Of a stretch of DNA of 64,000 nt, positions 37,841 to 62,074 are shown piece after piece. The stretch is from Planctomycetota bacterium (GTDB lineage: Bacteria; Planctomycetota; J058). Where the stretch lies: the NCBI GenBank assembly GCA_041402045.1, contig JAWKSZ010000043.1:1-64000 (forward strand), given 5' to 3'. The notes under the pieces were generated by a model. It did not search any database. It saw nothing but the letters and a program-made list of their open reading frames with translations, and had not been told where the DNA came from. A program made the translations under genes and the position numbers. Within the stretch, counting starts at the first letter, position 1. Each line of letters begins with the position of its first letter.

Positions 37841-40800
37841 GTGGCAAGTCCTTACGACATAACCTTCCTCCGCTTGCTCATGGATCGCCAGTTGGCTCAA
37901 AAGCCGCAGGCGATGCAGTGCATAGCCGAGATCGACTCGCAGGCCCAGCAAGGGCGCACCGTGTCGGCCGCGCAGCTCGTCGTGCAGTTCGGGCTCGTCG
38001 ACGTCGACCTGGCGCGCGAGGTCGACGCCCTCGCGCGCCAGGAGCTCTCGCGGGCCAACGGCGCCAACGGCTCCGGCGCGCCGCCGCCGCCCCCGCCGCT
38101 CCCCGGCGGGCCGCCCCCGGCGCCCGGCGCGCTCCCGCCCACCCCCGGCGCGCTCCCGCCCATGCCCGGCGGGCTGCCCCCGACCCCCGCTGCGCTCCCG
38201 CCCACCCCGGCGGCGCTGCCCCCACGCCGACGACGCTCCCGCCCACCCCCGGCGCGCTCCCGCCGCCCCCCGCCGCGCTCCCCGGGTCCGCCGCCGTCGC
38301 TGCCTCCGGCGCCGGGCGGACTCCGCCCATGCCGGCGCTGCCGCCGACCCCGCCCCGCGCCCCTGGCGTCCGACGACGGCGGCGGCGACGACGAGGCCTA
38401 CTACGCGCTGGAGGGCTCGCTCTCGGGCTACGAGACCGGCCCCAAGCTCGGCCGCGGCCCGGTGGGGACGAGCTACGCCGGCCGCCGCGCCGACGGCTCA
38501 CCGGTGGTGGTCAAGGCGCTGAGCAAGCGCTTCGCCAAGCACCCCGACGTCGTGCGTCAGGTCGAGGACGACCTCTCGCGCTGGAAGGGCTTCGCGCACC
38601 CGACCGCGGTCAGCGTGTTCGACGTCGGCACGAGCAACGAGCGCACGGTGATCGTCTACAGCCGCGCCCGCGGCGAGAACCTGGCGGACCTGATCGAGGC
38701 CACCGGGCCCCTGGCGCCGACCCTCGCCATGCGCGTGGTCTACGACGTGGCCCTGGCGCTGGCCTCGGCCAAGGAGAAGGTCAACCTCGCCTGCGGCGAC
38801 GTGCGCGCGCAGAAGATCTACTTCGACGGGAAGCGCGCGCAGATCGCCGACCTCGGCCAGTGGCGCGCGTCGTGCCTCGGCAACGGCTTCGGCAAGCACG
38901 GGCTGACCTTCGGGCACCCGGCCTACCTGGCGCCCGAGGTCCTGCAGGAGGGGCAGGCCCAGCCCAACCCGTCGGCCGACGTCTACGCGCTGGGGATCCT
39001 GTTCTACGAGCTCCTGTGCGGGCAGCAGCCCTTCCGCGGCGAGGTCGTGGACGTGCTCAGCCAGCACATGGAGGCCCCGCTCCCGCCGCCCCCGGGGGAG
39101 GTGCGCTTCAGCGCCAAGCTCGCCGCGCTGATCCTGCGCATGACCGCCAAGAGCCCTGCCTCCCGGCTCCCCGACGCCGCGGCGGTGGTCGAGTCGATCA
39201 CCGCGCTGCTCGAGGGCAAGGGGCTCCCGCCGCAGCAGGCCAAGGCCAACGCGGTCACCGCCGACGAGTGGGAGAAGACCCAGGCCCAGAACCGCGCCAC
39301 CGGGCGCTGGAGCCGCTCGCGGATCGACGCCGCGCCGGCGATCGGCCCCTCCGAGCTCGGGCGCGCCATGGACCTCGGCGCCGCGAGCTCGGTCAGCGGC
39401 ATGCTGCCCTCGACGGTCCGGCCCAAGGAGGCCGGGGTCGAGATCTCGCTGGGCAAGAAGATCGGCCGAGGGAGCGCGGGCACCGCCTACGAGGGCACCC
39501 ACACCAAGTTCCCGGGCAAGCTCGCGATCAAGGTGCTCACCAAGCGCTTCGCCCAGCACCAGGACCTGCTGGCGGAGATCAAGGGCGGGCTGCGGCGCGT
39601 GGTCGGGGTCAAGCTCCCGGGGGTCGTGCCGGTCCTCGCGCTCGAGGAGTCCGGCGGCCGCGACCTGGTGGTCTCGCCCCTGATCCCGCATGCCCAGAGC
39701 CTGCGCCAGCGGCTCGAGACCCAGGGCGCGTTCCTGCCCTCGGTCGCCACCGGGTTCATGAAGGCCGTGGTCCAGGCGCTGGCCGCCGCGGACCGCGCCG
39801 GGCTGCACCACGGCGACCTGCGCCCGGACAAGATCCTGGTCGACGGCGAGGGCCAGGCGCACCTCGTGGACTTCGGCCTCGCGCGCGCGTCGTGCTTGGG
39901 CGCGGGCTACGGCAAGGTCGGCCTGCCCTTCGGGCACCCGGAATACCTCGCCCCCGAGGTCGTGCAGGAGTCCCGCAAGCAGCCCTCCCGCGAGTCGGAC
40001 ATGTACTCGCTGGGGATCACCTACTACGAGCTGATCTGCGGGCGCGCGCCGTATCAGAGCCCGGACCTCAAGGAGATCCTGCGCCAGCACCTCGAGGAGC
40101 CGCTGCCGCGCCCGCCGGACGAGGTCAGCCTGCCCGGCGCCGTGGCCAACCTGATCACGGCCCTGACCCACAAGAACCCCGAGGTCCGCCCCGAGACCTG
40201 GGAGGAGGTCCAGCAGGAGCTCGAGAGCTGCCTGGGCCTGGACGGCTCGGCCTTCGACCGCCCCTCGGCGCAGATCGAGGAGTTCGACCCCCTCGCCGAC
40301 GACGACGAGCCCCTGGTCGAGGTGTGGGAGCAGACCTCCGAGATCCTGGCCAAGCCCGCGATCGCCTGGGACAAGTCCAAGATCACCCAGCCCAAGCGCG
40401 TCGGCCCCGACGACCTCGCCGCGGGCACGGTCGACCTCGCCGCGAGCGAGGGCGAGAACCTCGTGGCCGCGGCGATCAAGGCCGCCGCCGCCAGCGAGAA
40501 CCCCGCGACCAGCAGCACCCGCAAGCGCGGCAAGCCCAAGGCCAAGGGCGCTGCGGCGGGCGGCGGCAAGGACGAGGGCGGCGGCAACGGCAAGCAGCTC
40601 GTGCTCGCGCTGGTCGGGCTCCTGGGCGTCGTGGGCGTGATCGCGTTCCTGGCCCTGGGCAGCGGGGACGGCGGCGGCAGCGGCAAGCCCCCCAAGCCCA
40701 ACCCCAACGGCGGCGGCACGGGCGGCGGCGGCACCGGCGGCACCGGCGGCGGGGGCACGGACAAGCCGCCCCCCGAGACCCCCGACGCCTCGAAGTGGGC

Positions 40801-44615: not shown

Positions 44616-45560
44616 ATGATAGCGCCGCGCTGCGGCGCGGGTCACGGTGCAGGCATGCACGACGCCGACGCACTGCCCTGCTCCGCCTGCGGAGCCCACG
44701 TTCACGCCCGCCGCACGCGCTGCCCGCACTGCGGCGCCCCGCTGGGCGCCTCGGGAGGAGCGAGCTGGACCCCGCAGGCGCGCCCAGGCCCTCGCGGCGC
44801 GGGCGGGGGCTCGCCGCTGGTCCCGATCGTCCTCGGCCTCGCGGCGCTGGGGGTCCTGGCTCTGGTGGCTGCGGCGCTCCGCCCCCGTCCGCGGCGGGTG
44901 CCGCCCGGTCCTCCTCCGGCGCTGGCGGGCTCGATCCTGCGTCCGGTGTTCCACACCCGCAGCGAAGGTCCGATCGAGGCGGGGACGGCCTTCGTGGTTC
45001 GGGTGCCCGGGCTCGAGCGCAACGTGCTGCTCACCGCGCTGCACCTCCTGGGCCCCGACGGCGGCATGTCGCGCGCGGTCCCCGCTGCCGAGGTCTCGGC
45101 GGAGGTCGAGGCCGTGAGCCTCACCGACGCCTTCACGGGCTACGGGGCGTTCGAGGCCGAGGAGGCGATCCTGATCCCCTCGGCGAGCCTCGCCTCGAAC
45201 AGCACGCCGGGGGACGTGCTCGCGTTCTGGGTGGCGCGGGGCGAGGGGAGCCCGCTGACCCTGGCCCCCGAGGCGGCGCGAGTCGGGCAGAGGGTGTGGC
45301 TCTCGGCCAAGCTCGTCGACGGCAGCGACACGCAGCTCCACCCCGCGCGCGTCGTCGAGCTCGCTCCCGGGACGTTCTACTACGAGTACCTCGGGCGCGG
45401 CCCGGAGCTCCAGGCGACCAGTGGCGCGCCCGTGCTCGACGGCGCGGGAGAGGTCGTGGGGATCAACCTCGGCGGTGGGGTGTACGAGGGCAAGCCCTTC
45501 GGCATGGGCAACCCGATCGACAACTGGCGCCCCGCCCTGGAGCGCGCGCTCGCGCGCTGA
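44616..45560 (+). CDS. trypsin-like (S1/DegP-like) serine protease with N-terminal zinc-ribbon and TM anchor
   Basis: CSACG...CPHCG zinc ribbon, then TM. Catalytic His near LLTALHLL and Ser in TSGAPVLD. An alternative start is ATG 44655. Confidence 0.7.
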   Translation: MIAPRCGAGHGAGMHDADALPCSACGAHVHARRTRCPHCGAPLGASGGASWTPQARPGPRGAGGGSPLVPIVLGLAALGVLALVAAALRPRPRRVPPGPPPALAGSILRPVFHTRSEGPIEAGTAFVVRVPGLERNVLLTALHLLGPDGGMSRAVPAAEVSAEVEAVSLTDAFTGYGAFEAEEAILIPSASLASNSTPGDVLAFWVARGEGSPLTLAPEAARVGQRVWLSAKLVDGSDTQLHPARVVELAPGTFYYEYLGRGPELQATSGAPVLDGAGEVVGINLGGGVYEGKPFGMGNPIDNWRPALERALAR

Positions 45561-45573
45561 GCTAGCGGCTCAG

Positions 45574-45605
45574 GCGGCGCGTACGGTCTTCACGTTGACG
45601 AAGGG
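45574..45605. repeat. 30-bp direct repeat copying the 3' end of the aldehyde dehydrogenase gene (second copy 49062..49093)
   Basis: Shared core gtcttcacgttgacgaagg. The pair brackets a lower-GC 3.5-kb segment. Confidence 0.55.
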
Positions 45606-45788
45606 AGCGGCCCGTCGTGATCCGGGGCGACGCCGACATGGCGTTCCCGCGACCCAGCGCCTGCGCGGAGGCCCGGCGCCTTAGGCTCCGCGTGAGGCCT
45701 CGTCCACCAGGCTATGCGGTTCGGCTGGAGCCGGAGGATCTCGTGGCGTCGGGGGAGGACAGCACTCCAGTCGGGGCCAGACAGAGGC

Positions 45789-46610
45789 CTAGAAGGAGGG
45801 GGTGAGCTGTCCCATGGCGCCCCGACGGTAGCGCTGTACCGCCGCTTCCAGCTCGGCAGCACTCGTCATGGCGAACGGACCGCTCCACATGACGGGCTGC
45901 TCGAGAGGCAGGCCTGCGAAGACGGCGCCTCGCCAAGGGTGTGCGGGCCCGGCCTCCAGCTCGATGCTGTCGTGGCTCCTGCCTAGCAGGAGGACCCCCA
46001 GCCCGCTCAGGGTCACGCCGGCACAAGCGGCGACTCCGCCGATCGAGAACACGAAGGTGTTCGCCCTGGCGACCTCGAGTTCTACCTTTGCTCCGGGGTC
46101 GAGGGAAACGTCGAGGAGGGTCACGGGTGTTTGCAGGTCGGTGAGGGGGGAACACCGACCTGCATGCTCGCCCGCTACCACGCGTACCGTTGCGCCTTGA
46201 TTGGAGAGGCTTGGAATCTCCTCGACGGCGGCGTGGAATGCCCGTGGCTCTGCTGCCTTGTTCTTCAGATCGACGAAGATCTGAAAGCCCCGACACTCAG
46301 TCCCCGGGGATTCGGGGACCTCCTCGTGCATCATGCCAGCGCCGGCCTGGGTCCAGTGGACGGATCCCGGTCGAATCCTGCTGTGATCCCCAAAGCTGTC
46401 GCGGTTCACGAAGGCCCCAGGGGATTCGGGCAGCATGTAGGTGACCGCCGAGAACCCTGCGTGGGGGTGGGGCGGGAAGGTCGGCTGCGACATGCGGAAC
46501 AGGTCGACGTTCAAGAACGGGTCGAGGTTCGCCTCACGCCCATGACGAATGCCGGCGCTCTGGAAGCCGGCCGACATGCTTCGCTCGGCGAGTGGAATCC
46601 AACTCGTCAT
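45789..46610 (-). CDS. pirin family protein
   Basis: HPHAGFSAVTYML cupin motif. 273 aa. Confidence 0.85.
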   Translation of the reverse strand: MTSWIPLAERSMSAGFQSAGIRHGREANLDPFLNVDLFRMSQPTFPPHPHAGFSAVTYMLPESPGAFVNRDSFGDHSRIRPGSVHWTQAGAGMMHEEVPESPGTECRGFQIFVDLKNKAAEPRAFHAAVEEIPSLSNQGATVRVVAGEHAGRCSPLTDLQTPVTLLDVSLDPGAKVELEVARANTFVFSIGGVAACAGVTLSGLGVLLLGRSHDSIELEAGPAHPWRGAVFAGLPLEQPVMWSGPFAMTSAAELEAAVQRYRRGAMGQLTPSF

Positions 46611-47518
46611 GCACCCCGCTCCAGCTGAGCGACGTAGTCGGCAATCGACATCGGCTCAACGCCCGGAAAGCGGCGGTTGTGCAGCTCAGGCGCCTTCCCC
46701 TTGCCGTTGAGCATGCCCCGCCAATACATCAGCGACAGGTAGCTGAACAGATCCTCCGGAGCGGCGGCCTGCCGCTCAGCGATCGTGCGGTCGAGGTCGG
46801 CGAGCGAACCACGACGAACGATCTCGAGGGGCTCTCCAGTGCCGCGTTCGATCTCGCGCGCCAGGCCCGCAACGTCGAGAACCGCGCCGGATACAAAGAG
46901 GCGGTCGGGAACTTCGCCTTCGGCCAGGAGCGCCTCCGCCGTGAACGCCGCCGTGTCGCGAAAGGTGGTGAAGTCCATGGGCTCGAGGCCGTCGCCCCAC
47001 AGCTCGAGCTTGCTGGAGGCTAGGTCCACGGCGCCAAGGAAGCCGAAGAGCACCTCGCGATCGATGAAACACCCGTTCATGACGTGAACGACTTGGACCT
47101 CGCCAGCCACACCGACCGCTGCCTCGGCAAACTCTCGCCGCCAATCCGAGTTTGGGTTGTCCCCCGGTGCGAGCGCGAAGAAGTTGAACGAGAAGTCGGA
47201 GGGAAAGAAGCGTCTCACGCCTTGCTCTTCGCAGGCCTGAAGCAGGGCTAGCTGGCCGTCGACGATCGTCTCGGGGCCGCCCTGCACCGCGGACACGACC
47301 CCCATGGCTCCAGCGCACACGGCGCCCAGCGTATTGGGGTCGCTCAAGTCCGCAGAGACGACTTCGACGCGCTCGGGCCAGGCGTCTGCGACGGTCCCCT
47401 CGCGCCCAGGCCGCACGACCGCGCGGACGTGGGCACCCCGGCGCAAGAGCTCGTCGACCAGCAAACTGCCTAGTTTGCCGTTGGCACCGACGACCGAAAC
47501 CGTATTCGAGTCGCTCAT
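46607..47518 (-). CDS. NmrA-like NAD(P)-binding protein
   Basis: VVGANGKLG Rossmann motif. 4-nt overlap with the pirin gene. Confidence 0.8.
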   Translation of the reverse strand: MSDSNTVSVVGANGKLGSLLVDELLRRGAHVRAVVRPGREGTVADAWPERVEVVSADLSDPNTLGAVCAGAMGVVSAVQGGPETIVDGQLALLQACEEQGVRRFFPSDFSFNFFALAPGDNPNSDWRREFAEAAVGVAGEVQVVHVMNGCFIDREVLFGFLGAVDLASSKLELWGDGLEPMDFTTFRDTAAFTAEALLAEGEVPDRLFVSGAVLDVAGLAREIERGTGEPLEIVRRGSLADLDRTIAERQAAAPEDLFSYLSLMYWRGMLNGKGKAPELHNRRFPGVEPMSIADYVAQLERGA

Positions 47519-47952
47519 CCGTTCCCTTCCATGAGCTTCTGGAACCCGGGGTCGACATCCATGCTACGGCTACGGAAACGCCAGCCTTGCGCCGTCTTCT
47601 CCGCGACGCTGTCGCGGTAGATCGCTGTGGCAACGATGTGTGGGACGTCGACGACCTCCATGACAACCATGTAAGTGGTGACCAGCGCTTGGTTGGGCAG
47701 TTCACCTGGACGAATGATCACGTTGCCGAGCAGGTGTCGCTTGCCGATGGCCATGCCGCGGTGGACGTGCTCGTCCTCGAACTCCCGGATCGCCGCACGA
47801 CCTTGGAAGTTCCCGAAGGCGCTGTTGAACGTGATGTCGTCGTCCTCGACCCAGCAGTCCATGAAGCCGTCGACGTCTTTCTCGTCGGTGGACACGTAGT
47901 AGCGGGCGCAGAGGTCTTGGATCTCGAGGCGGTCAAGTGCAGACAGGGGCAT
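47515..47952 (-). CDS. SnoaL-like / NTF2-like domain protein
   Basis: Start MPLSALDRL with GGAAGGAGAG RBS. 4-nt overlap with the NmrA gene. Confidence 0.7.
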   Translation of the reverse strand: MPLSALDRLEIQDLCARYYVSTDEKDVDGFMDCWVEDDDITFNSAFGNFQGRAAIREFEDEHVHRGMAIGKRHLLGNVIIRPGELPNQALVTTYMVVMEVVDVPHIVATAIYRDSVAEKTAQGWRFRSRSMDVDPGFQKLMEGNG

Positions 47953-48054
47953 AGGGGCTCTCCTTCCGGGGCCTGGTTCAATCGCAAGGCTAGTCCGCCC
48001 GTCAGGCGGGACAATGGGCCCGTAAGCTGACACACTGTCAACGTGAGTGAGCAT

Positions 48055-48948
48055 ATGGATCCCGCAGCCCTATTGACCTTCGCGGAAGTAGCGCGGACGG
48101 GGAGCTTCAGCGCCGCGGCGCGTAAGAGTGGGCGTTCCAGGCAGTCGGTAAACCGACAAGTCGCAGCTCTCGAGGCCCGGTTGGGACTGCGACTCTTCGA
48201 GCGCTCGACACGCAGGCTACGAATCACCGACGTGGGGCAGCGACTGCTCCTACACGCCGAGCGATTGCGGCGGGACGTGCTGGCAGCTACGGACGAAATG
48301 CGCGCCGCACGCTCCGCTCCGGGCGGGACCCTGCGGGTTACAGCGCCGGGTCTCCTGGGTGAGGAGTTCGTAAGCCCAACCATCGCCTCGTTCTTGAGTC
48401 TCTATCCAGAGGTGAGGATCGAAGAGGTGCTTTCGCTCGAGCGCGTCGACCTGCTCGAGCAGCGTTTCGATCTGGCGATTCGAGCGGGCCGGCTCGAGGA
48501 CAGCCCCCTCATTTCACGCCTGCTTGGACACGCCGTCGTTGTGTGTTGCGCTTCGCCAGCGCTCTTGGCTTCGGCCCCACCGATCGAGGTGCCGGGCGAC
48601 CTGCTCGACTTGCCGACGATCCACTACGGACGCCACCAGATCGGACCCGAAGTGACCTGGCGGTTTGGAGACACCGCAGTGAGAGTCCTTCCGCGACTTG
48701 CCTCAACAAGCACCCGCACCGCATGCAACGCCGCGGTTCACGGACTGGGGGTCGTCCGCCTTCCGCTCCTTGCTTGCCAGGCTGAGCTCGAGTCGGGCGC
48801 CTTGGTGGAGGTCTTGGTGGCCTGGCGAGACGAAACCGTTCCAATTCAAGCGGTCTACGCCAGCCCCTCAGCGACGAACCCCACCCTTCAAGCGTTCGTC
48901 GGCGCCTTGCTGGACGCCGCCCAACAGGCCACATGGCTTGTGCGCTGA
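48055..48948 (+). CDS. LysR-family transcriptional regulator, divergent from the SnoaL-NmrA-pirin operon
   Basis: N-terminal HTH (LLTFAEVARTGSFSAAARKSGRSRQSVNRQVAALE) and LysR substrate-binding domain. Confidence 0.85.
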   Translation: MDPAALLTFAEVARTGSFSAAARKSGRSRQSVNRQVAALEARLGLRLFERSTRRLRITDVGQRLLLHAERLRRDVLAATDEMRAARSAPGGTLRVTAPGLLGEEFVSPTIASFLSLYPEVRIEEVLSLERVDLLEQRFDLAIRAGRLEDSPLISRLLGHAVVVCCASPALLASAPPIEVPGDLLDLPTIHYGRHQIGPEVTWRFGDTAVRVLPRLASTSTRTACNAAVHGLGVVRLPLLACQAELESGALVEVLVAWRDETVPIQAVYASPSATNPTLQAFVGALLDAAQQATWLVR

Positions 48949-49058
48949 ATCCGAAGCCTCCAAAGGGAGCGAGCACTCGATTCGCTGGGTCGATTTGGGG
49001 GTTCTAGCCTGAGGAGTCCTACCCAGGCTTCGCCCACCAGGCGGGTGGCCTCGCGCAC

Positions 49059-50429
49059 CTAGGCCGCGTAGACCGTCTTCACGTTGACGAAGGCCAGGAT
49101 CCCCTGGCGCCCCAGCTCGCGGCCGTAGCCGCTGTCCTTGATCCCGCCGCAGGGCAGGCGCGGGTCCGAGCGCACGCGGTCGTTCACGAAGCAGGACCCG
49201 GCCTCGAGCTCGTCGCGGGCGATCTGCCAGCCGCGCTCCACGTCGCGAGTGAACACCGCCGCGCCCAGCCCGAAGGAGCCGGTGTTGGCGACCTCGATCG
49301 CCTCCTGGGCGTCGACCACCGGCACGATCGCCGCGACGGGCCCGAACAGCTCCTCGGAGAACGCGGGCATGCCCGCCACGACTCGGGTCAGCACGGTGGG
49401 GGGGTAGTAGGCGCCGGGCAGGTCGCGGGGGACGTAGCCCCCGAGCAGGCAGCTCGCGCCCAGGGCGACGCTGGCCCGGACCTGGTCGTGCAGGGCGTCC
49501 CGCGCGGCGACGCTGGCCAGGGGCCCGAGCTCGCAGCTCGGCTGGGTCGGGGGCTGCATGCGCGCGCGGCGCATGCGCTCGACGACGAGGGCCTCGAAGG
49601 CCTCCCGCACCGGCTCGACCACGATGAACCGCTTGGCGGCGGTGCAGCTCTGTCCGCTGTTCTCGAGCCGGCTGGTGACGCAGGCGTCGGCGGCGAGCTC
49701 GAGGTCCGCGTCCTCGAGGATCAGGTAGGGGTCGCTGCCGCCGAGCTCCAGCACGCTGGGCTTGATCGCCTTCCCCGCGGCCTCGGCCACCTCGCTGCCT
49801 GCGGCGGCGGTCCCGGTGAACGTCACGCCGCGCACCAGGGGGTGCTCGATCAGCCCGCGCACGGCGTCGGACCCGGTGAGCAAGGTCTGGAACACGCCCT
49901 CGGGGACGCCGGCGGCCGCGCACAGGCGCTCGATCGCCAGCGCGCAGCGGGGCACGTTGCTCGCGTGCTTGAGCAGGCAGGCGTTGCCCGCGGCCAGGGC
50001 AGGGGCGGCGAAGCGGAACACCTGCCAGAAGGGCTCGTTCCAGGGCATGACCCCCAGGACCAGGCCCAGCGGGCGGTGCACGACCTCGCTGCGCGCGGCG
50101 CCGGCACCGACGGGGCGGCTGGCGAGGAACTCGGCGGCGTGGCGCGCGTAGAACTCGCACACCTCCGCGCAGCGGTCGATCTCGGCCTCGCCCTGGAACA
50201 CGGGCTTGCCCATTTCGCGGGCCATGGTCACCGAGAGGTTCACGCGTCGCGCGCGGAGGACGACCGCCAGCTCGCGCAAATGGTCGCAGCGCCGGCCGAC
50301 GTCGAGGCGCCGCCAGCGCAGGAACGAGCGGTGCCCGCGTTGGATCGCGGCGCCGAGCTCCGCGCGGCCCGGGGGCTCGAAGGCTTCGATCAGGGTCCCC
50401 GTGCTGGGGTCGACGGTGGCCACGGACAT
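49059..50429 (-). CDS. NAD(P)-dependent aldehyde dehydrogenase (succinate-semialdehyde dehydrogenase-like)
   Basis: ELGGSDPYLI and catalytic Cys in SGQSCTAAKR. 456 aa. Confidence 0.9.
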   Translation of the reverse strand: MSVATVDPSTGTLIEAFEPPGRAELGAAIQRGHRSFLRWRRLDVGRRCDHLRELAVVLRARRVNLSVTMAREMGKPVFQGEAEIDRCAEVCEFYARHAAEFLASRPVGAGAARSEVVHRPLGLVLGVMPWNEPFWQVFRFAAPALAAGNACLLKHASNVPRCALAIERLCAAAGVPEGVFQTLLTGSDAVRGLIEHPLVRGVTFTGTAAAGSEVAEAAGKAIKPSVLELGGSDPYLILEDADLELAADACVTSRLENSGQSCTAAKRFIVVEPVREAFEALVVERMRRARMQPPTQPSCELGPLASVAARDALHDQVRASVALGASCLLGGYVPRDLPGAYYPPTVLTRVVAGMPAFSEELFGPVAAIVPVVDAQEAIEVANTGSFGLGAAVFTRDVERGWQIARDELEAGSCFVNDRVRSDPRLPCGGIKDSGYGRELGRQGILAFVNVKTVYAA

Positions 50430-52366: not shown

Positions 52367-52539
52367 GGGGGACCTCCGTTCCACCCCCAAGAGCGCACGC
52401 CGCATGCCGGGGGCGCTGCGGGCAGAACTCGGGCGCGAGCGGGCGACGCCGCGTCGCGTCGCGACAGCGCTGTCGGCGCCGTGGACAGCTCTGACCCCCA
52501 GCCGTGGGGGCGCGCCGCGCGATCGCGTAGGCTGAGCGG

Positions 52540-55242
52540 GTGACCAAGCGCAAGCTGCGTCCTAGCCAGGACGTCTACCATCGGATTCGCTGGGACCCGC
52601 GGCTCGAGCCCACGGAGTTCGAGGTCGTGCACCGCGAGCGCTCGGGGCGCTTCGAGGCCACGCCCCTGGTGGAGTTCGTCCCCGGCGGGCGGATCCCCTG
52701 GTCCCGGGTCTACCGCGTGCGCCGCCGCGACGGGTTGGTGGTGTGGGACCGCGAGGCGCGGCGCGACCTGTTGTTTGGCTCCGGCGACACCGCCCCCGAG
52801 GAGCGCCTCGAGCCCACCCGCGGCGCCGAGCCCGACGACGGGTTCCTCGTGCCCCTGGTCCCCTGGCGCCACGGCGCCGAGGGCTGGCGCGAGGACCGCG
52901 CCCCCGCCGCGCCGCTCCCGCGCCGCCCGCTCTCGGTCCTCAGCTACAACGTGCTGTTCGAGCGCTTCCGCGCCGAGCACCTGCGCACCGCCGAGCGGCG
53001 CCCGGCCCAGCTCGCGCTCCTGGGCGCGCAGCAGGCGGACCTGATCGCGCTGCAGGAGGTCACGCCGCCCTACCTCGAGGCGCTCCTCGCCGAGCCCTGG
53101 GTCCAGCGCGACTACTGGGTCAGCGCCGGGCCCGGGAGCGAGGTCGTGGAGCCCAACGGCCAGGTCCTGCTCTCGCGGGTGGCCCCCGCGCGGCTCGGAC
53201 TCCACGCCTACAGCGGGCGCAAGCACGTGCTGGTGGCCCGCTTCGCCGACGGCGTCGGCGGGCTGTGGGTCGCGGTGGTGCACCTCACGAGCAACATGAC
53301 CCCCAACGCCCCCGAGGTCCGGGTGGGTCAGCTCGCGGCGCTGCGCGGGTTCCTCGAGCGCAACGCGCGGGAGGCGACCTGGCTCGTCGTCGGGGACTTC
53401 AACCAGCGCGAGGGGGAGCCCCTGGGTGGGCTCGTCGAGGCCGGGGCGCTGGACCTCTGGCCCGCGCTGCACCCGGGCGACCCGGGCTACACCTTCGACC
53501 CCGGCGCCAACGCCCTCGCCGCCGAGCTCAGCAGCAGCCCGCACCCGGTGCGCTACGACCGCGTGCTCCTGCGCGCGACCGCCGACCGCTGGCGCGGCGC
53601 GGCCCTCGAGCGCTTCGCCTGCGACCCGGTCCCCGGGGTCGAGCCGCCGCTGTTCCTCTCGGACCACTTCGGCCTGACCCTCGAGCTGCGCCCGGGGGAC
53701 GGGAGCCAGGGTCAGCCGGTGCACACCAGCGCGCTGGCGGTGGTCCCCCCGCCGGGGGCCTGGCCCGCGCTCCAGGCCCTGCGCCGGGCGCACGACCCGC
53801 GGCACCGGCGCTGGCCCCCGCACGTGAGCGTGCTCTACGGGTTCGTGGCCGCCCCGCACCTGGAGGCGGCCACGAGCGCCGCGCGCGAGGCGCTGCGCGG
53901 GCACGCGCCGTTTCGCCTGAGCCTCGACGGCCTCGAGCGCTTCGCCCACCGCCGCCGCGCGTCGGTGTGGCTGCGCCCCGAGCCCGCCGAGCCCCTGCGC
54001 GCGCTGGAGGCCGACCTCCTGCGCGCGTTCCCCGCCTGCAGCGAGCAGCGCCACAAGGGGACCGCGGGCTACACCCCGCACCTGACCGTGGCCCAGGTCT
54101 CCCTCGCCGAGACCCCGAGCTTCCTGAGCGAGGTCGGGCGCGGCTGGACCCCGCTCGCGTTCGAGGTCGACGCGCTGTGCGCGCTGACCCGGGAGCAGGG
54201 CACGGGCTTCGACCTCCAGGCCGCGATCCCTCTGGGGGCCCCGCGCTCGCTGGAGCAGGCGACCGCGGCCTCGGGCCTCCTGGGGGAAGGCCCGCCCCCG
54301 GGGCTGGAGGCCCTGCGCCGGGCGAGCCCGCTCGAGCTCGCGGTGTTCGGCTCCTGGGCCCTGGACGCGGCGCTTACCTCCAGCGACCTCGACCTGGGCG
54401 CGACCCTCGGTCCCGGCCAGGAGCCCCTGGCCTACTACGAGCTGGTCGCGGAGAGCCTCGAGCGCGCGGGCAGCCTCCGCGAGCGGCGCGTCGTCCCCGG
54501 CGAGCTCCCGCTCCTGCGGCTGGAGCTCGAGGGCGGCGCCAAGGTCGACCTCCTGGCGAGCGTCGGCGCCCCGCCGCCCCAGGCGGGGGTCCCCGCCTTG
54601 CTGCGGACGGCGGCGGGCGCGCGCTGGGAGCTGGCCCGCGCGACCCTGCGCGCGCTCCGCGCCTGGGCCTCGGCCCGGCAGCTCGACGCCCAGGCCCTGG
54701 GCGGCCTCGGCGGCGTGGCCTGGGCGGCGCTGGCGGTCGAGGCGACGCGCGGCGCCGCGAGCGCTCCCGAGGCGCTGGAGGCGAGCCTCGCCGCCCTGGC
54801 CCAGGACGGCGCCGACGCCGTGCGCGCGGCCAGCGCGCGGCTCGCGATCCCGGGGGAGCCGACCAAGGGGCTCACGCCCTCGACCCGCGCGCTCCTCGCC
54901 CGCGAGGCGCGCCGCGCCCTGGGGTTGGCTCAGGCCGCGCGCCGCGGCGAGGGGGCCTGGAGCGGGCTGTTCTACCCGGCGCCGCTCCCGCCGGAGCCGG
55001 TGGTGTGGATCGAGCCTGCGCGCGAGGGACCCGGGGTCGAGGGCGCGCTCCTGGGGATCGCCCAGCGCGTGATCGCGGCGCTGGAAGAGAGCGGGGCCAC
55101 GGTGCGGCCCTGCCCGCAGCGCGAGCCGCGGGGCTGGGCCTTCGGGGTCGACGTGCTGGGGCCGAGCCAGGCCCGGGCCGTCGAGCGCGCGCTGCGCCCG
55201 GCGCGCGAGCTGCGCGCGGCCTTCGAGCCCGAGCCCGACTGA
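52540..55242 (+). CDS. multidomain RNA-repair-like enzyme: N-terminal DUF504/MJ1316-type cyclic-end recognition domain, EEP (endonuclease/exonuclease/phosphatase) domain, 2H/LigT-like phosphoesterase (HVSV...HLTV), C-terminal polymerase-beta-type nucleotidyltransferase (GSW...DLDL)
   Basis: DVYHRIRWD...RIPWSRVYRV. EEP motifs LSYNVL, LQEV and SDHFGL. Two H-x-S/T-x motifs. GS-x(n)-D-x-D motif. 900 aa. Confidence 0.75.
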   Translation: MTKRKLRPSQDVYHRIRWDPRLEPTEFEVVHRERSGRFEATPLVEFVPGGRIPWSRVYRVRRRDGLVVWDREARRDLLFGSGDTAPEERLEPTRGAEPDDGFLVPLVPWRHGAEGWREDRAPAAPLPRRPLSVLSYNVLFERFRAEHLRTAERRPAQLALLGAQQADLIALQEVTPPYLEALLAEPWVQRDYWVSAGPGSEVVEPNGQVLLSRVAPARLGLHAYSGRKHVLVARFADGVGGLWVAVVHLTSNMTPNAPEVRVGQLAALRGFLERNAREATWLVVGDFNQREGEPLGGLVEAGALDLWPALHPGDPGYTFDPGANALAAELSSSPHPVRYDRVLLRATADRWRGAALERFACDPVPGVEPPLFLSDHFGLTLELRPGDGSQGQPVHTSALAVVPPPGAWPALQALRRAHDPRHRRWPPHVSVLYGFVAAPHLEAATSAAREALRGHAPFRLSLDGLERFAHRRRASVWLRPEPAEPLRALEADLLRAFPACSEQRHKGTAGYTPHLTVAQVSLAETPSFLSEVGRGWTPLAFEVDALCALTREQGTGFDLQAAIPLGAPRSLEQATAASGLLGEGPPPGLEALRRASPLELAVFGSWALDAALTSSDLDLGATLGPGQEPLAYYELVAESLERAGSLRERRVVPGELPLLRLELEGGAKVDLLASVGAPPPQAGVPALLRTAAGARWELARATLRALRAWASARQLDAQALGGLGGVAWAALAVEATRGAASAPEALEASLAALAQDGADAVRAASARLAIPGEPTKGLTPSTRALLAREARRALGLAQAARRGEGAWSGLFYPAPLPPEPVVWIEPAREGPGVEGALLGIAQRVIAALEESGATVRPCPQREPRGWAFGVDVLGPSQARAVERALRPARELRAAFEPEPD

Positions 55243-55307: not shown

Positions 55308-55425
55308 GAAGCGAAGCCTCTCCTAGGAGCCGGAGTCACGATCCTGAGCGGGCGAGGGACCTCCGGCGCGGCGACGACCGTCCACGACCCTCGCCCGCTC
55401 AGGATCGTGAACTCCGGCTCTTAGC
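55308..55425. repeat. about 115-bp structured repeat: conserved 5' flank (aagcgaagcctctNctag) plus long imperfect hairpin (about 28-bp arms); copy 1
   Basis: Arms ccggagtcacgatcctgagcgggcgaggg / ccctcgcccgctcaggatcgtgaactccgg. Second copy at 61958..62074 with compensatory changes. Both copies lie between convergent gene ends. Confidence 0.6.
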
Positions 55426-55836: not shown

Positions 55837-56532
55837 TTACTCGGCGACCAGGCGCTTGCGCAGGTCCGGGATCAGGCTCTCGGTCTCCTGGAAGATCCGG
55901 GGGTATTCGATCTGCTCGCCGTTGTCGTCGAGGATCGACTTGATCTGGACCTTGTAGATCAGCGGGTTGCGCGAGGTGATCGAGCAGAAGAACTGGTTGG
56001 TCAGCGCGACGGTCTTGGTCGGGCCGCGGCGCAGGGACTTGGTCTTGCTCTTGCTCGCGATGTACCCGGCCTGGTTGTCCTGGTTGTCCAGCTCGGGGTA
56101 GTAGCGGGTGAGGGTGTCGATCAGGACGTCCCACACCTGGTCCTCGTCCATGTCGCTGTTGACCTCGAGCTCGAGCCAGGTGTTCGAGGCGTCCGAGGGC
56201 ACGGTGTGGGTCCACACCTCGTCCTCGTGGAGCTTGATCTCAATGAACTCCTTGCCGTCCTCGACCCCGTTGCGCTCGCTGAAGGCGTCGATCGTGAGCT
56301 GGTGCACGAGCTTGGTGGAGCGGACGTAGCCCTCCTTCGTCGCCGCGACCTTGTAGCGGGTCTCGGGGTCGGCGAAGTCGAAGCCGTAGAGCACGGGCGA
56401 CACGCCGATCGGCTTGTCGTCGACCGAGATCTCGGCGCCCTCCTCGGGCACGGTGCGGATCTCGACCTGGCGCACGGTCTCGCAGCCGCAGAGCAGGGTC
56501 AGGGCGAGGGTCAGGGCAACGGTACGGGTCAT
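55837..56532 (-). CDS. lipoprotein (hypothetical)
   Basis: Start MTRTVALTLALTLLCGC with AGGAGG RBS 6 nt upstream. Lower-GC region. Confidence 0.6.
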   Translation of the reverse strand: MTRTVALTLALTLLCGCETVRQVEIRTVPEEGAEISVDDKPIGVSPVLYGFDFADPETRYKVAATKEGYVRSTKLVHQLTIDAFSERNGVEDGKEFIEIKLHEDEVWTHTVPSDASNTWLELEVNSDMDEDQVWDVLIDTLTRYYPELDNQDNQAGYIASKSKTKSLRRGPTKTVALTNQFFCSITSRNPLIYKVQIKSILDDNGEQIEYPRIFQETESLIPDLRKRLVAE

Positions 56533-56633
56533 GCCGGCCTCCTGGGATCGAGCGGCGCACGGTAGCACGGGAGCCCAGGGGCTGCGAGCGCTCTCCTAGA
56601 GGGCTGCAGTGCAACGGAGGCCCGGCAGGCCCG

Positions 56634-59600
56634 CTACTCGGGCAGCTCGAGGAGCACGCGGAAGCCGACGTCGTCGTAGCCCTTGATCGTGCGCCCGCGG
56701 CGCGAGGTCGCCCGCGTGTCCTGGAGCGGGGTGCAGAAGCTGCCCCCGCGGTAGATCCCGGCGCTGCCCGAGGCCTCGAAGGGGTCCGTGAGCTCGGTGG
56801 TGCTGTCGAGGGGGTAGGCGGTGAAGCCGTCGCGCACCCACTCCGCCGCGTTCCCGATCGTGTCGTAGAGCCCGAAGGGGTTGGGCGCGACGCCCTCGCG
56901 CCCGACCGCGGCGAGGAGCGTGGCCCCGTCGCTGCAGCCGAAGTACTCCTGCCCGCGGCCCTGGAGCTTGGGGGCGTAGGCCTCGACGTAGTCGTCGTCC
57001 TTGACGTTGGCGCGGTCCCGCGCCCCGGCGACGGACTTGCCCCAGAACCACGGACCCCGCGTGCCCGCGCGGCAGGCGTACTCCCACTCGGCCTCGGTGG
57101 GCAGGCGCAGGCGCCCGGCGAGGCCGGCCGCCTCCCCGAGCTTCGCGCAGAAGCTCGAGGCATCGATCCGGGTGACGCCCACCGCGGGCCAGGCGGGGTC
57201 CTCGAGGCTGAGGGTCGGCGGCTCGGCGAGCCCGGCGCGCCCCTCGTGGGGGGTGAACTCGGGGGCGGTGTAGGCGCCCATGACCGCCGCGTACTGCGCC
57301 TGGCTGACCTCCCACGCGCTGAGGTAGAAGCCGCGGGTCAGGCGCACGAGGTGCGGCCGCGCGTCGTCGTCCCGCGCGCGGAAGAAGGGGTCGTCCTCGG
57401 GGTTGGAGCCGCGGGAGTAGACCCCCGGCGGGATCAGCACGAACTCGATCCCCTCGACGGTCTTCGTCAGCGGCTGGTTGTGATCCTTGGCGAAGCTCTC
57501 CTGCGCCGGGGTCACCGTCCACCAGGCGCCCTCGAGGACCTTGGGGGCCTTGCGGGTGACCTGGGCCTCGCCGCGGCCCTCGTTGCCCACGTCGTCGGTG
57601 GCCGCGACGGCGAAGGTGTAGGTCCCTTCGGAGTCGATCTTGATCCCCTTCCACACCCACACGCTGCCCACCCGCTGCGGGGGGCCCTGCTGCACGGTCC
57701 CGGCCCCGCGCTTCTCCAGGGTCACGGCGCTCGGCGGCTGGGCCTCGCCGGAGATCCGCACCTGGACGTCCACCTGGGTGATCGCCTCGGGGTCGCCCTC
57801 GGGCCAGGCGGTGGGCACGACCTCGACCTCGACGGTCGGCGGGGTCGCGTCGCGCACCGCGACCAGCTCCAGGCGCGTCTCGTTGCCCACCTCGTCGCGG
57901 GCCACCACCGCCGCGGTGTGCTCGCCCTCGCTGCCGAGGGCCCAGCTCCCGCGGAACACGCCGTCGGCCGCGGCCTCGAGGGCCACCCCGTCGAGGGTCA
58001 CCCCCGCCAGGTCGTGGTCCTGGGCGCGGACCTCGACCGGCACGGCCGCGTCGCGGGTGCGCAGGGGCGCGCCGTCGGGGGACTGGGGCGGGAGCCGGAG
58101 CTGGAGCGTCGGCGGCTGGCGCAGGAGCTCCTCGCGCTCGGCCGCGAGCCGCTTCTGCTCTTCCTCGCTCTCCGTCTCCTGGTCCTTGACCACCTGCTCG
58201 CGGTCGCGGAGCTCGGCCTGCTGGCGCTCGAGCTCGCGCTGGTGCCGCGCGCGGCTGAAGAAGGCCAGCGCCCCGTAGGTCACCCCCGCGAACACCAGCA
58301 CCAAGGTCAGCGCCGTGAGCGCCGCGGGCTTGGGGTTGCGCCGCACCCAGCGCCGGAGCTGCTCCAGCGCGCTCGGGCGCTGGGCCACGATCTTCGTGCT
58401 GGCCTGGTAGCGGCGCAGGTCCTCCGCCAGGGTCTCCATGCTCGGGTAGCGGTGGCCGACCTCCTTCTCCAGGCAGTGGAGCACGATCGTCTCCAGGTCC
58501 TCGGGCACCTCCGCGCGCTGGCGGCGCAGCGTGGGCGGGCTCTTGGAGAGCACCTGGTGGATCACCGCGCCCACGGTCTTGCCTACGAAGGGCGGGCGCC
58601 CGACGAGCGCGTAGTAGAGGGTCGCCCCCGCGCCGTAGACGTCGGCGCGGGCGTCGACCGGCGCGGCCATGCCCGCCTGCTCCGGCGGCATGTAGCCCGG
58701 GGTGCCCAGCAGGGTGAAGCCCTGGGTCAGCCCCTGGCTCGGGTCCTCCTCGAGCAGCTTGGCCAGGCCGAAGTCGGTGAGGCGCACCGTGCCTTCGCGG
58801 TCGAGCATGACGTTGTGCGGCTTGACGTCGCGGTGCAGCACGTTCTGCGCGTGGGCGTAGCCCAGGGCGTCCGCCAGCGCCGCGCCGATCTCGGCGGCGC
58901 GCGCCGGGGGCAGCGGGCCTTCGCGCTCGACGAGGTCGTGGAGGGTCTCGCCCTCGACGAGCTCCATGGCCATGTACCACAGCTGGCTGCGCTCGTCCTG
59001 CTCGAGGTCGAGCACGCTCACCAGGTTCTTGTGGCTCAAGCGTCCGGCGGCGCGGCCCTCGACCAGGAAGCGCTGGACCCCGGTCTCGGCGCCCGGGGGC
59101 GCGCGCAGGACCTTGAGCGCGACCTTGCGGTCGGTGCGCAGGTGCACGGCCTCGTAGACCGCGCCCATGCCGCCGGCGCCCAGGGCCTTGAGCAGGCGGT
59201 AGGGCCCCAGGCGCGAGGGGATCGCCGAGCCCGGCTTGCCGCGGGGGATCGTGGCCTGGCTCTGCTGGAGCTGGCTGCCCTGGCTGGCCTGGGTCGGCGG
59301 GTCGACCTGGGTGTCGCCAGGGCCGGCCGACGCCGGCCCTTCGCGGGTGTGTTCGGCCCGGGTCTGCTCGTCGCCGCCGTGGCTCGACGCCGCGGGGGGC
59401 GGCGGCGGGGTCAGCCCGGGGTGCGCCCCGGTGTGGGAGCCCGTCTGCGAGCCGTGCTGCCAGCCGGGTTGGGAGTGGAACCCGCCCACCCGCGAGTCGA
59501 AGGCGTTGGGGTGCGCGGCCACGTTCGAGTCCGAGAGCGTGCGCGCCGCGCGCACGTCGCCCCCGTCGCTGAAGGTCGAGTCGGGGCCCTCGCTGAAGTC

Positions 59601-60080
59601 GGGGAGCGCGATCGGCCCCGACTGGTTGAGCGTGCTCTCCAGGTCCGAGGGCGCCCCGGCCAGGGTCCGCGCGTCGCGGTCGAAGGCCGCCAGCGGCGGC
59701 TCGTCGTCCTGAGGCGGCGGGCTGTAGAGCGTGGGCGCGTTGGGGTCGAGGGGCTGGTCCAGGGCGCTGGGGCGAGCGCCGACCCCCGGCGGGAGCGGGG
59801 CCTCGGCGAAGGTCATGGCGCCCCGGTCCACCGACGGCGGCGCGGGCGCGGCCTCGGCGAAGGTCATGGCGTCCCGGTCCACCGACGGCGGCGGCGGCGC
59901 GGCCTCGGCGAAGGTCATGGCGTCCCGGTCCACCGACGGCGGCGGCGGCGCGGCCTCGGCGAAGGTCATGGCGTCCCGGTCCACCGGCGGCGGCGGCGGC
60001 GCGGGGGGCGGCGGGTCCGGGTGCAGGGGCTGACCCGAGGGGTCGAAGGGCTGCTCGTCGTCGGGAGGGGTGCCGCTCAC
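56634..60080 (-). CDS. Ser/Thr protein kinase with N-terminal PPPPSVDRDAMTFAEAA x4 repeats, TM helix, Ig-like region and C-terminal FGE-sulfatase domain
   Basis: Kinase motifs GAGGMGAVYEA, HRDVKPHNVML and DFGLAK. C-terminal RLPTEAEWEYACRAG...GNAAEWV...RGGSF. 1,148 aa. Confidence 0.8.
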   Translation of the reverse strand: MSGTPPDDEQPFDPSGQPLHPDPPPPAPPPPPVDRDAMTFAEAAPPPPSVDRDAMTFAEAAPPPPSVDRDAMTFAEAAPAPPSVDRGAMTFAEAPLPPGVGARPSALDQPLDPNAPTLYSPPPQDDEPPLAAFDRDARTLAGAPSDLESTLNQSGPIALPDFSEGPDSTFSDGGDVRAARTLSDSNVAAHPNAFDSRVGGFHSQPGWQHGSQTGSHTGAHPGLTPPPPPAASSHGGDEQTRAEHTREGPASAGPGDTQVDPPTQASQGSQLQQSQATIPRGKPGSAIPSRLGPYRLLKALGAGGMGAVYEAVHLRTDRKVALKVLRAPPGAETGVQRFLVEGRAAGRLSHKNLVSVLDLEQDERSQLWYMAMELVEGETLHDLVEREGPLPPARAAEIGAALADALGYAHAQNVLHRDVKPHNVMLDREGTVRLTDFGLAKLLEEDPSQGLTQGFTLLGTPGYMPPEQAGMAAPVDARADVYGAGATLYYALVGRPPFVGKTVGAVIHQVLSKSPPTLRRQRAEVPEDLETIVLHCLEKEVGHRYPSMETLAEDLRRYQASTKIVAQRPSALEQLRRWVRRNPKPAALTALTLVLVFAGVTYGALAFFSRARHQRELERQQAELRDREQVVKDQETESEEEQKRLAAEREELLRQPPTLQLRLPPQSPDGAPLRTRDAAVPVEVRAQDHDLAGVTLDGVALEAAADGVFRGSWALGSEGEHTAAVVARDEVGNETRLELVAVRDATPPTVEVEVVPTAWPEGDPEAITQVDVQVRISGEAQPPSAVTLEKRGAGTVQQGPPQRVGSVWVWKGIKIDSEGTYTFAVAATDDVGNEGRGEAQVTRKAPKVLEGAWWTVTPAQESFAKDHNQPLTKTVEGIEFVLIPPGVYSRGSNPEDDPFFRARDDDARPHLVRLTRGFYLSAWEVSQAQYAAVMGAYTAPEFTPHEGRAGLAEPPTLSLEDPAWPAVGVTRIDASSFCAKLGEAAGLAGRLRLPTEAEWEYACRAGTRGPWFWGKSVAGARDRANVKDDDYVEAYAPKLQGRGQEYFGCSDGATLLAAVGREGVAPNPFGLYDTIGNAAEWVRDGFTAYPLDSTTELTDPFEASGSAGIYRGGSFCTPLQDTRATSRRGRTIKGYDDVGFRVLLELPE

Positions 60081-60120
60081 GCTGGCGAGTGTAGCGCGTA
60101 GGCGGGGGCTTGTCGGCCTC

Positions 60121-61233
60121 TTACGCCTCCCCTGCGGGCTTCGAGGGTGCGTTGGGGTCGGTGACGCTCCCCTCGGCCCGAGGCGCGTTGAGCTGGGTCG
60201 GCGGCGCCGGGCGCTTGGGCCGGAGCCCGAGGAACACCAGGCTCAAGATCCGCGAGCGCAGGAGCGCCTTCTCGATCACGAGCGGGACCCCGAGCCCGAA
60301 GCCGAGGGACAGGAAGAACAGCCCGAGCCCGGCCTCCAGCCCCAGGACCTTCTTGGCCACGATCCTCGAGCCGGCGGTGCCGAACACGTGGAACAGGTAG
60401 ATCCCGTAGGAGTAGAAGCCGAGCCGCGCGAGCCAGGGGGTCTCCCAGCGGATCCGGAACAGGATCAGGCACCCGGTGAGCCCCACCAGCATGCCCAGGG
60501 CGGCGCCGCGGTATTCGGTGTCCATGCGCTCGAGCAGCGGGAGCGGCCAGCCGTACCACGACCCCTGCTGCCACACCAGCCCGAGGAGCAGGATCGCCGC
60601 CGCGGGCAGGACCACGGCCGGCCCGCGCAGCAGCGCCTCGAAGCGCCCGAGACCGACGCCGAGCAGGAAGAACGGGAGCAGGTAGAGGAACGCGGGGAAG
60701 GAGAAGAACGCGGTGACCGGGAACGGCGGGCTCCAGCGGATCAAAGCGGCGACGAGGAGCACGCCGGCCCAGCGCGCGGGGGTCTTCAGGGCCTGCACCC
60801 GCTCGAGGGCGGTCACCGTGAGGAACACGAGGAAGATCGCCTGCAAGAACCAGAAGTGGTCGAAGGAGAACAGGTAGATCCGCCAGATCTGCGAGAGCTC
60901 GACGCGGGCGTTGGTCCCGGGCACGGCCCAGCGCATGAGGAACTCGAGGGTCGCGACCGCCGCCATGGGCAGCAGGATCCGCCGCGCCTTGCCCCGCAGG
61001 AAGCCCAGGCTCTTGCCCGCGGCGACCGGGCGCAGGGTGTAGACGAACCCCGAGATCACGGTGAACAGGGGCATGCGGAAGAACTGCAGCGAGTAGTAGA
61101 AGTGGCGGAACTCGGAGTCCGCGGCGACCTTCATGCCGTTGGTCGCTTTGTCCCCGATCACGTGCCCGGCGACCATGAGAATGATCGCGAGCCCGCGCAG
61201 GGTCTCGATCGACTGATCCTTCCGCTTCGGCAC
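60121..61233 (-). CDS. acyltransferase family 3 (OpgC/OatA-like) membrane protein
   Basis: LRGLAIILMVAGHV N-terminal motif and about 10 TM helices. GTG start. Confidence 0.8.
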   Translation of the reverse strand: MPKRKDQSIETLRGLAIILMVAGHVIGDKATNGMKVAADSEFRHFYYSLQFFRMPLFTVISGFVYTLRPVAAGKSLGFLRGKARRILLPMAAVATLEFLMRWAVPGTNARVELSQIWRIYLFSFDHFWFLQAIFLVFLTVTALERVQALKTPARWAGVLLVAALIRWSPPFPVTAFFSFPAFLYLLPFFLLGVGLGRFEALLRGPAVVLPAAAILLLGLVWQQGSWYGWPLPLLERMDTEYRGAALGMLVGLTGCLILFRIRWETPWLARLGFYSYGIYLFHVFGTAGSRIVAKKVLGLEAGLGLFFLSLGFGLGVPLVIEKALLRSRILSLVFLGLRPKRPAPPTQLNAPRAEGSVTDPNAPSKPAGEA

Positions 61234-61391
61234 GGCGCGGAGGATACCCAGCCTGTGCAGCGACGTCTCGCCTCGGGTGACGCCCGTGGGGCGCGCCCGG
61301 GTAAACCGCTTCCCGCGCGAACGCTAACTCCTTGTGTCGGATCTCGGCCCGGGGCGTGCACTGCGTCCGCCCGCGGGGAAGGAGGCGAGGC

Positions 61392-61957: not shown

Positions 61958-62074
61958 CAAGCGAAGCCTCTACTAGAAACCAGAGTCACGATCCTGAGCG
62001 GGCGAGCGAGCGCCAGATCGCTGACGACATGGGAGCCACTCTCGCCCGCTCAGAATCGTGAACTCTGGTTTAGC
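61958..62074. repeat. structured hairpin repeat, copy 2 (arms ccagagtcacgatcctgagcgggcgag / ctcgcccgctcagaatcgtgaactctgg)
   Basis: Same element as 55308..55425. Base changes between copies preserve pairing (ccgg/ccgg versus ccag/ctgg). Sits between convergent gene ends. Confidence 0.6.

Follow-up and report, generated by a model that had tools for sequence, protein, structure and literature searches.

A lower-GC LysR and SnoaL_4-NmrA-pirin islet bracketed by direct repeats of an aldehyde dehydrogenase gene end

A four-gene islet at a repeated gene end

We analysed the first 64,000 nt of contig JAWKSZ010000043.1 (NCBI GenBank assembly GCA_041402045.1), here called the window, from an uncultured bacterium of high GC (guanine plus cytosine) content labelled Planctomycetota. 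Between a protease gene and a convergent aldehyde dehydrogenase gene lies an islet of four genes of lower GC content, and the 3' end of the dehydrogenase gene recurs as a direct repeat on the far side of these genes, next to the protease gene (Table 1). A LysR-family regulator gene, convergent with the dehydrogenase gene, diverges from an operon encoding SnoaL_4, NmrA-like and pirin-family proteins, whose two junctions each overlap by 4 nt (46607-46610 and 47515-47518). A preliminary description of the locus had named these genes and called them a self-contained regulatory cassette; Pfam searches bear out the gene content, and the arrangement recurs elsewhere (see below).

Table 1. Features of the islet and its two neighbours, in coordinates of the window
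Feature	Coordinates	Strand	Details
Zinc-ribbon and trypsin-like peptidase gene (protease), left neighbour	44616-45560	+	Pfam Trypsin_2 and Zn_ribbon_3, both below curated cut-offs; convergent with the dehydrogenase gene
Left repeat copy	45570-45604	-	PFVNVKTVRAA-stop; stop tca 45570-45572; 16-nt diverged tail 45570-45585, core 45586-45604
Left spacer	45605-45788		184 nt, gene-free, GC 0.734; holds 18-mer AGGCCTCGTCCACCAGGC at 45695-45712
Pirin-family gene, third of operon	45789-46610	-	Pfam Pirin 2.6e-17, Pirin_C 2e-14; GC3 0.78
NmrA-like NAD(P)H-binding protein gene, second of operon	46607-47518	-	Pfam NmrA 1.9e-17; GC3 0.80
SnoaL_4 (NTF2-like) gene, first of operon	47515-47952	-	Pfam SnoaL_4 4.2e-20; ATG at 47952 after GGAAGGAGA
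Divergent control region	47953-48054		102 nt; LysR-type T-N11-A dyad TGACACACTGTCA at 48028-48040
LysR-family regulator gene	48055-48948	+	Pfam HTH_1 1.9e-18, LysR_substrate 1.7e-32; GC3 0.72, z = -4.4
Right spacer	48949-49058		110 nt, gene-free, GC 0.645 (islet-like); holds 18-mer AGGCTTCGCCCACCAGGC at 49025-49042
Right repeat copy, the dehydrogenase 3' end in use	49059-49093	-	AFVNVKTVYAA-stop; stop cta 49059-49061; 16-nt tail 49059-49074, core 49075-49093
Aldehyde (succinate-semialdehyde-type) dehydrogenase gene, NAD(P)-dependent, proposed target	49059-50429	-	Pfam Aldedh 4.9e-123

A repeat search of the window returned 45572-45604 and 49061-49093 as a direct repeat of 33 nt with 85% identity. 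When the stop codons are included, the in-frame homology covers 35 nt in each copy, 2-3 nt more than previously described, and both copies correspond to the last 11 codons and the stop of the dehydrogenase on the minus strand. The dehydrogenase ends in ...ILAFVNVKTVYAA before its stop, and the left-copy counterpart in ...AAPFVNVKTVRAA, likewise followed by a stop. The two copies share a perfect 19-nt core, GTCTTCACGTTGACGAAGG; beyond it, at 45605, the homology breaks off sharply, with only 3 of the next 10 nt matching. Because the homology of the left copy takes in the stop codon at 45570-45572, this copy begins 9 nt past the protease stop (45558-45560), and not 14 bp past it as the preliminary description had it.

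A 20-nt probe allowed up to two mismatches found the two repeat copies alone in the 64 kb, and two matches were obtained in none of 100 dinucleotide shuffles. Among exact repeats of at least 19 nt, and leaving aside those internal to one gene, the core is one of just three pairs that are dispersed and non-tandem. The recurrence of the dehydrogenase end as a diverged repeat at the islet edges thus stands as originally proposed: the match is present, in frame and beyond anything seen in the shuffles.

The composition of the interval sets it apart from its surroundings. Positions 45605-49058 (3,454 nt) have a GC content of 0.655 (0.61-0.68 in 500-nt windows), compared with 0.74 in the 10-kb flanks and 0.724 in the whole window; the drop noted earlier is real, but the values then quoted (60-63% against about 72%) overstated its size. 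The GC content at third codon positions (GC3) is 0.72-0.81 in the four islet genes and 0.935 (standard deviation 0.048) in 35 other genes of the window, which corresponds to z = -2.6 to -4.4. The islet genes lie at codon-usage distances of 0.17-0.22 from the host profile, against a mean of 0.08 (standard deviation 0.04) for host genes, and all four deviate from every neighbour. The protease is native in composition, with GC3 of 0.92-0.98 in its 3' half, and the dehydrogenase has GC3 of 0.94-1.0 in every 50-codon block, reaching 1.0 in the last. At the right edge of the islet, the change in composition falls to the nucleotide on the dehydrogenase stop.

The islet encodes what is expected of a LysR-regulated operon: a protein with HTH_1 and LysR_substrate domains, a divergent operon, and a predicted T-N11-A dyad in the shared region. 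The start codon of the SnoaL_4 gene was picked from the sequence and from a 147-aa homologue on metagenome contig L086, described below. NCBIfam offered no equivalog-level name for any islet protein, and the best NCBIfam match of the dehydrogenase, succinic semialdehyde dehydrogenase, fell below its cut-off. The cassette is most likely a module for small-molecule, quinone or redox detoxification.

The left spacer shows no coding periodicity, no open reading frame (ORF) of note and no similarity to the dehydrogenase, and its predicted RNA folds worse than shuffled sequences (z = +1.6). Scans for promoters and terminators gave chance-level results. Just inside each repeat, the adjoining spacer holds a single occurrence of an 18-mer, AGGCYTCGYCCACCAGGC; the two occurrences are 16/18 identical, a value reached in 1 of 300 shuffles. 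It could be a recombinase arm site or a chance match.

Divergence of the gene ends and distribution of the cassette

The two gene ends differ at seven positions, all of which fall in the stop-proximal 16 of the 35 nt and none in the core (P = 0.0017). Three of the differences are synonymous third-position changes, two convert TAG to TGA, one stop to another, and two replace Tyr by Arg. Five of the six codon meanings, the stop included, are thereby kept, an outcome expected with P = 3-5 x 10^-4 for seven random substitutions in those 18 nt; the mismatch-pattern test was devised after the data had been seen. A gapped alignment of the tails, with two 2-nt indels and three mismatches, is about equally parsimonious. 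With mismatches that cluster next to the stop and are mostly silent or exchange one stop for another, the two tails resemble coding ends that evolved apart, and not a fresh target duplication followed by decay.

The C-terminus EFVN[VI]KT[VI] plus three residues is conserved in this dehydrogenase subfamily, which identifies the left copy beyond doubt as a dehydrogenase tail. Among the best 120 homologues, KT[VI] is followed nearly always by an aromatic residue, then by V, I or L, and then by any residue. Tails ending in AA are rare, amounting to 2 of the 117 scored: the YAA of the window's own dehydrogenase and one WVAA. Since both copies have this rare ending in AA before the stop, the left copy appears to come from the gene lineage of this dehydrogenase, and not from a random paralogue.

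We compared the locus with other genomes and metagenomes. In a protein search the dehydrogenase matched the source contig alone at 100% identity; the nearest dehydrogenase outside it is 65% identical, and its neighbours differ. A scan of genome contigs yielded 78 loci with the dehydrogenase, the best at 62% identity on a 7-kb contig (L027) and the others at 59% or less; none of the 78 has the protease gene or a pirin, NmrA or SnoaL gene nearby, and three have a LysR-family gene. The best protease homologue outside the source contig is 42% identical, and searching the contig index for the window's dehydrogenase gave no exact match.

The cassette itself was found elsewhere, on one unrelated contig. 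Contig L086 (Logan SRR23848399, contig GC 0.71) carries at 82-3257 a LysR gene and a SnoaL_4-NmrA-pirin series in the same order and orientation, with junctions that overlap or abut. Its proteins are 59% (LysR), 80% (SnoaL_4), 64% (NmrA) and 60% (pirin) identical to those of the islet, and its NmrA protein is the best homologue found outside the source contig. The control region is conserved in the T-N11-A dyad (TGACA-N3-TGTCA) and in a CATTGTC block. The context in L086 is different: the module is followed by a 135-aa ORF without assignment and an HTH_31/MLTR_LBD regulator, and its flanks contain neither a dehydrogenase tail nor a core-like sequence. Evidently the four genes move, or are retained, together. 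Many metagenome loci have reduced versions in which LysR accompanies NmrA, in some cases together with pirin; L086 is the only other contig found with the full trio and its LysR gene. Scanning metagenomes with an alignment of NmrA proteins turned up 64 loci, of which none is closer than L086 and none adjoins a dehydrogenase; in all, a dehydrogenase of this family stands beside the module in 0 of 68 loci with NmrA or cassette homologues.

Origin of the islet

The composition of the block and the repeats that bracket it make it very probable that the islet is a horizontally acquired insertion. To account for the mismatch layout as well, we favour a Campbell-type integration at the dehydrogenase 3' end in which the incoming DNA supplied a replacement tail, an account to which, taken as a whole, we assign a probability of about 0.55. 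A circular DNA carrying the cassette and its own site resembling a dehydrogenase tail would have undergone one crossover with the chromosomal dehydrogenase gene, inside the 19-nt identical core. The dehydrogenase would now end in the incoming tail (...KTVYAA-stop, 49059-49074), and the original host tail (...KTVRAA-stop, 45570-45585) would have been displaced and left as a dead fragment 9 nt from the protease stop. The resulting order would be dehydrogenase body, core, YAA tail, right spacer, LysR to pirin genes, left spacer, core, RAA tail, 9 nt, protease.

Several observations agree with this account. The repeat is beyond chance and both of its copies are in frame with a stop; the mismatches are laid out as a shared crossover core with arms of different origin; and the cassette is portable, recurring in L086 in another context. 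Removing 45605-49093 restores an intact dehydrogenase gene with its stop 9 nt from that of the protease, a gap that is unremarkable because other convergent pairs in the window overlap by 4 nt (3345/3348 and 15040/15043). The ancestral empty site is predicted to read ...GCGCTGAGCTAGCGGC-TCAGGCGGCGCGTACG-GTCTTCACGTTGACGAAGG-CCAGGATCCCC..., leading from the protease straight to the dehydrogenase, and the circular or excised form ...CCTCGCGCAC-CTAGGCCGCGTAGACC-GTCTTCACGTTGACGAAGG-GAGCGGCCCGTCG....

We infer the direction of the event, the host and donor assignment of the tails, the circular intermediate, and the means of joining. To the action of a site-specific recombinase we give somewhat less than even odds, the alternative being recombination through short homology. 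Codon-usage log-likelihood ratios for assigning the tails to host or donor were +1.6 and -0.6, weak values drawn from only 10 codons.

A search for mobility genes gave no candidate. Pfam searches of the four islet proteins and about 45 other ORFs in the window detected no integrase, recombinase, transposase or excisionase domain, and the integrase that the preliminary description had suggested looking for elsewhere did not appear in the 64 kb. Nor does the window contain a tRNA, a tmRNA or any Rfam family. The islet ends (45605-45684 and 48979-49058) match each other as inverted repeats only at shuffle level. The islet had no blastn match to a phage record and only weak, gene-level matches to plasmids, and the 19-nt core is absent from IMG/VR viral contigs. 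Because integrase, transposase, tRNA and terminal inverted repeats are all lacking in the 64 kb, the islet would be a decayed remnant, or one resembling a cis-mobilizable element (CIME): any recombinase would since have been lost, and an integrase-less block would have kept repeats like the left and right attachment sites (attL and attR) of an integrated element.

A number of findings weigh against the favoured account. Beyond the lack of an integrase or recombinase in the islet or the window, a displaced tail lies downstream in 0 of 85 other dehydrogenase loci, and no family of elements using this target is visible. No empty site was seen in any relative among the collections searched, in which the relatives are distant (65% for the dehydrogenase, 42% for the protease). 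The left spacer, assigned by the topology to the incoming DNA, has a host-like GC content that only 1% of 184-nt windows within the islet gene block attain; a deletion in a GC-rich backbone might have left it as a scar. The core differs by a single nucleotide (18/19 the same) in GC-rich dehydrogenases that are 65% identical in protein, so its identity alone is no proof of recent shared origin. Finally, the supposedly host tail on the left has the Val codon GTA, with a usage of 0.00 in the host and 0.09 in the islet genes, and an Arg where the family has a conserved aromatic residue. Decay after displacement is the simplest reading of both, yet it does not help the model.

These same observations can be read in other ways. 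A second dehydrogenase gene, either a paralogue in tandem or a xenologue brought in together with the cassette, may once have stood between the pirin and protease genes and been deleted down to its last 35 nt; we consider this unlikely, though worth keeping in mind. The likeness of the tails would then come from family conservation and GC-rich codon bias and not from insertion, as the conserved EFVN[VI]KT[VI] and the near-identical cores of the 65%-identical homologues would allow. The silent-site pattern suits two long-functional genes equally well, and the deletion itself could have left the host-like GC of the left spacer as its scar. Such a history, however, needs the coincidence of a fragment and an intact tail in the same orientation at both islet edges. 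The left spacer is without a trace of dehydrogenase sequence, none of the 68 loci places the NmrA gene or cassette next to a dehydrogenase of this family, and the shared AA ending points to one gene lineage. The preliminary description had seen an insertion that duplicated its target, by integrase or by recombination, and of this the insertion is likely, on the grounds of composition and bracketing repeats, whereas the duplication is disfavoured by the mismatch pattern and no integrase was found. Under that proposal about 35 nt of the target would have been copied, through a long target-site duplication or the repair of a staggered break, and the left copy would have decayed neutrally. Direct repeats do bracket a compositionally foreign block, and the GTA and Arg codons of the left copy look like decay. 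Neutral decay should nevertheless scatter its changes over the 35 nt, not confine all seven to 16, and it should not so preferentially leave codon meanings and the stop unchanged. Transposase target-site duplications are typically 2-14 nt, far below 35, and neither a transposase nor terminal inverted repeats are present; we regard the duplication as improbable.

Two further explanations would dispense with an insertion in this genome altogether. The source is a contig of a metagenome-assembled genome (67,563 nt) and its composition changes sharply at the islet edges, as might be seen if a lower-GC block from another organism had been joined to it during assembly. To produce such a chimera, the assembly would have to be wrong at two joins, and the longest exact match shared by the junction regions, 19 nt, is shorter than the k-mers that assemblers usually employ. 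The copies moreover differ from each other and so are not one collapsed repeat, and the displaced tail is in frame and exactly where integration would leave one; we see only a very slight chance of misassembly. The other explanation holds that the genes are native, of unusual composition, and lie beside a chance match. Other genes of the window do have lowish GC3 (0.75 at 29791-30645), and short imperfect repeats abound there, with 348 pairs matching at 15 of 17 positions. We find this scarcely credible, given that an in-frame match of 33-35 nt with its stop was unequalled in shuffles, that four consecutive genes are all composition outliers, and that the edge of the outlier block meets the right repeat to the nucleotide.

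Related systems and other features of the window

In Escherichia coli K-12, icd runs into the element e14, at whose far end stands the C-terminal pseudogene icdC (PMC13626634, citing Hill et al. 1989). The islet resembles e14 (and phage 21) at icd in lying within the 3' end of a gene for a metabolic enzyme. On the favoured reading it also shares with them a mostly synonymous C-terminal end, provided by the element, that leaves the enzyme intact, and a displaced original end that is kept at the far side as a C-terminal pseudogene, forming an imperfect direct repeat. Whereas e14 spans 15 kb, has its own integrase and excisionase, and has been shown to excise, the islet comprises 3.45 kb of regulator and enzyme genes only, has no recombinase, and is flanked by a 35-nt repeat with a 19-nt core. 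Like integrative elements, it has a flanking repeat with the functional gene end on its right and a composition distinct from that of the host; the recombinase gene found inside integrase-bearing elements is absent. It also lacks the transposase and inverted repeats of transposons and insertion sequences, and its repeat is long (35 nt) and imperfect.

CIMEs are elements that lack integration genes and have kept attL and attR (PMC5704250). They are decayed remnants left by integrative and conjugative elements (ICEs) or integrative and mobilizable elements (IMEs), often situated at the 3' ends of protein-coding genes, for example fda in streptococci. The islet shares with them the absence of mobility genes and the presence of flanking repeats, which may be att sites. 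What defines a CIME, however, is its derivation from an ICE or IME that can be identified, together with att sites still recognised by the integrase of a related element; for the islet no related ICE or IME was found, nor an integrase in the 64 kb. The CIME examples are also from Firmicutes, in contrast to the host of the islet.

Islands that target tRNA genes offer another parallel, in that they occupy the 3' end of a conserved gene, restore that gene on one side, leave a partial 3' repeat on the other and have atypical GC content. They differ in that the target of the islet is protein-coding, with no tRNA in the window and no P4-type integrase beside the target. As for its contents, the islet resembles the widespread LysR-regulated NmrA/pirin modules, accessory redox- or quinone-response pairs, in its divergent LysR gene, T-N11-A box, and NmrA-like and pirin genes; it differs from them by including SnoaL_4, the full trio having been found otherwise only in L086. 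There is a slim chance that the islet belongs, as a functioning member, to a class of tiny integrase-free islands not yet described. These would be aimed at the conserved 3' ends coding for ...FVNVKTV in succinate-semialdehyde-type dehydrogenase genes and moved in trans by a recombinase whose gene lies elsewhere in the genome, with the spacer 18-mers as arm-type recombinase binding sites around the 19-nt core.

The locus provides a clean, small example of how an accessory regulator-plus-enzyme cassette enters a genome at the 3' end of a housekeeping-type gene and leaves that gene unbroken. Its two-tail signature, in which arms diverged at silent sites adjoin an identical core, is a useful criterion for distinguishing replacement-end integration from simple target duplication. 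The principle has been known since e14 at icd and the tRNA-targeting islands, and the locus opens no new question; neither the mobility machinery nor the function of the cassette can be learned from it.

Other parts of the window have features of their own. The compositionally odd gene at 29791-30645 (minus strand) has no Pfam family and adjoins a Sir2-family gene; no flanking direct repeat was found for it. An imperfect direct repeat (15 of 17) at 18036-18061 and 18691-18714, preceded by GGCCTAG or GGCCTGA, exactly brackets a 653-nt unit, which consists of a 189-nt leader with GC 0.59 and a 154-aa ORF (18233-18697) with GC3 0.89 and no Pfam match. On one side of the unit is a MerR/B12-binding regulator gene and on the other an epimerase/NmrA-like gene, whose 5' end constitutes the second repeat copy. 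The unit could be another small insertion that duplicated gene ends, or the repeat may be due to chance, because the window has many repeats of this quality.

An intergenic element of about 110 nt occurs twice, at 55309-55417 and 61959-62068, 6,650 nt apart and 83-90% identical. Each copy contains a long hairpin, that of the first having 23-nt arms (55336-55358 and 55388-55410) that are 100% complementary around a 29-nt loop. The copies sit in lower-GC gaps (0.68 and 0.615), bracket a block of genes (55837-61817) and have no Rfam match; the element may be a repeat of the repetitive extragenic palindrome (REP) or miniature inverted-repeat transposable element (MITE) kind, a terminator or a small RNA.

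Unusual genes are also present. One ORF at 52531-55242 (plus strand) combines MJ1316 RNA cyclic-end recognition, endonuclease/exonuclease/phosphatase, 2'-5' RNA ligase and poly(A) polymerase central domains in an unusual RNA-repair-like fusion. The region 4651-13023 (minus strand) encodes a 1,704-aa protein with DUF3686 ("ATPase involved in DNA repair"), DUF7902 and AAA domains, adjoined by large ORFs (9807-12086 and 12061-13023) without Pfam match; these genes may form an uncharacterised multi-gene system. At least five Ser/Thr kinase genes lie in the window. One of them, a Ser/Thr-kinase plus FGE-sulfatase gene, contains four copies of a 51-nt tandem repeat at 59787-60041, and another begins with proline-rich repeats in a stretch of GC 0.85 (38000-38500).

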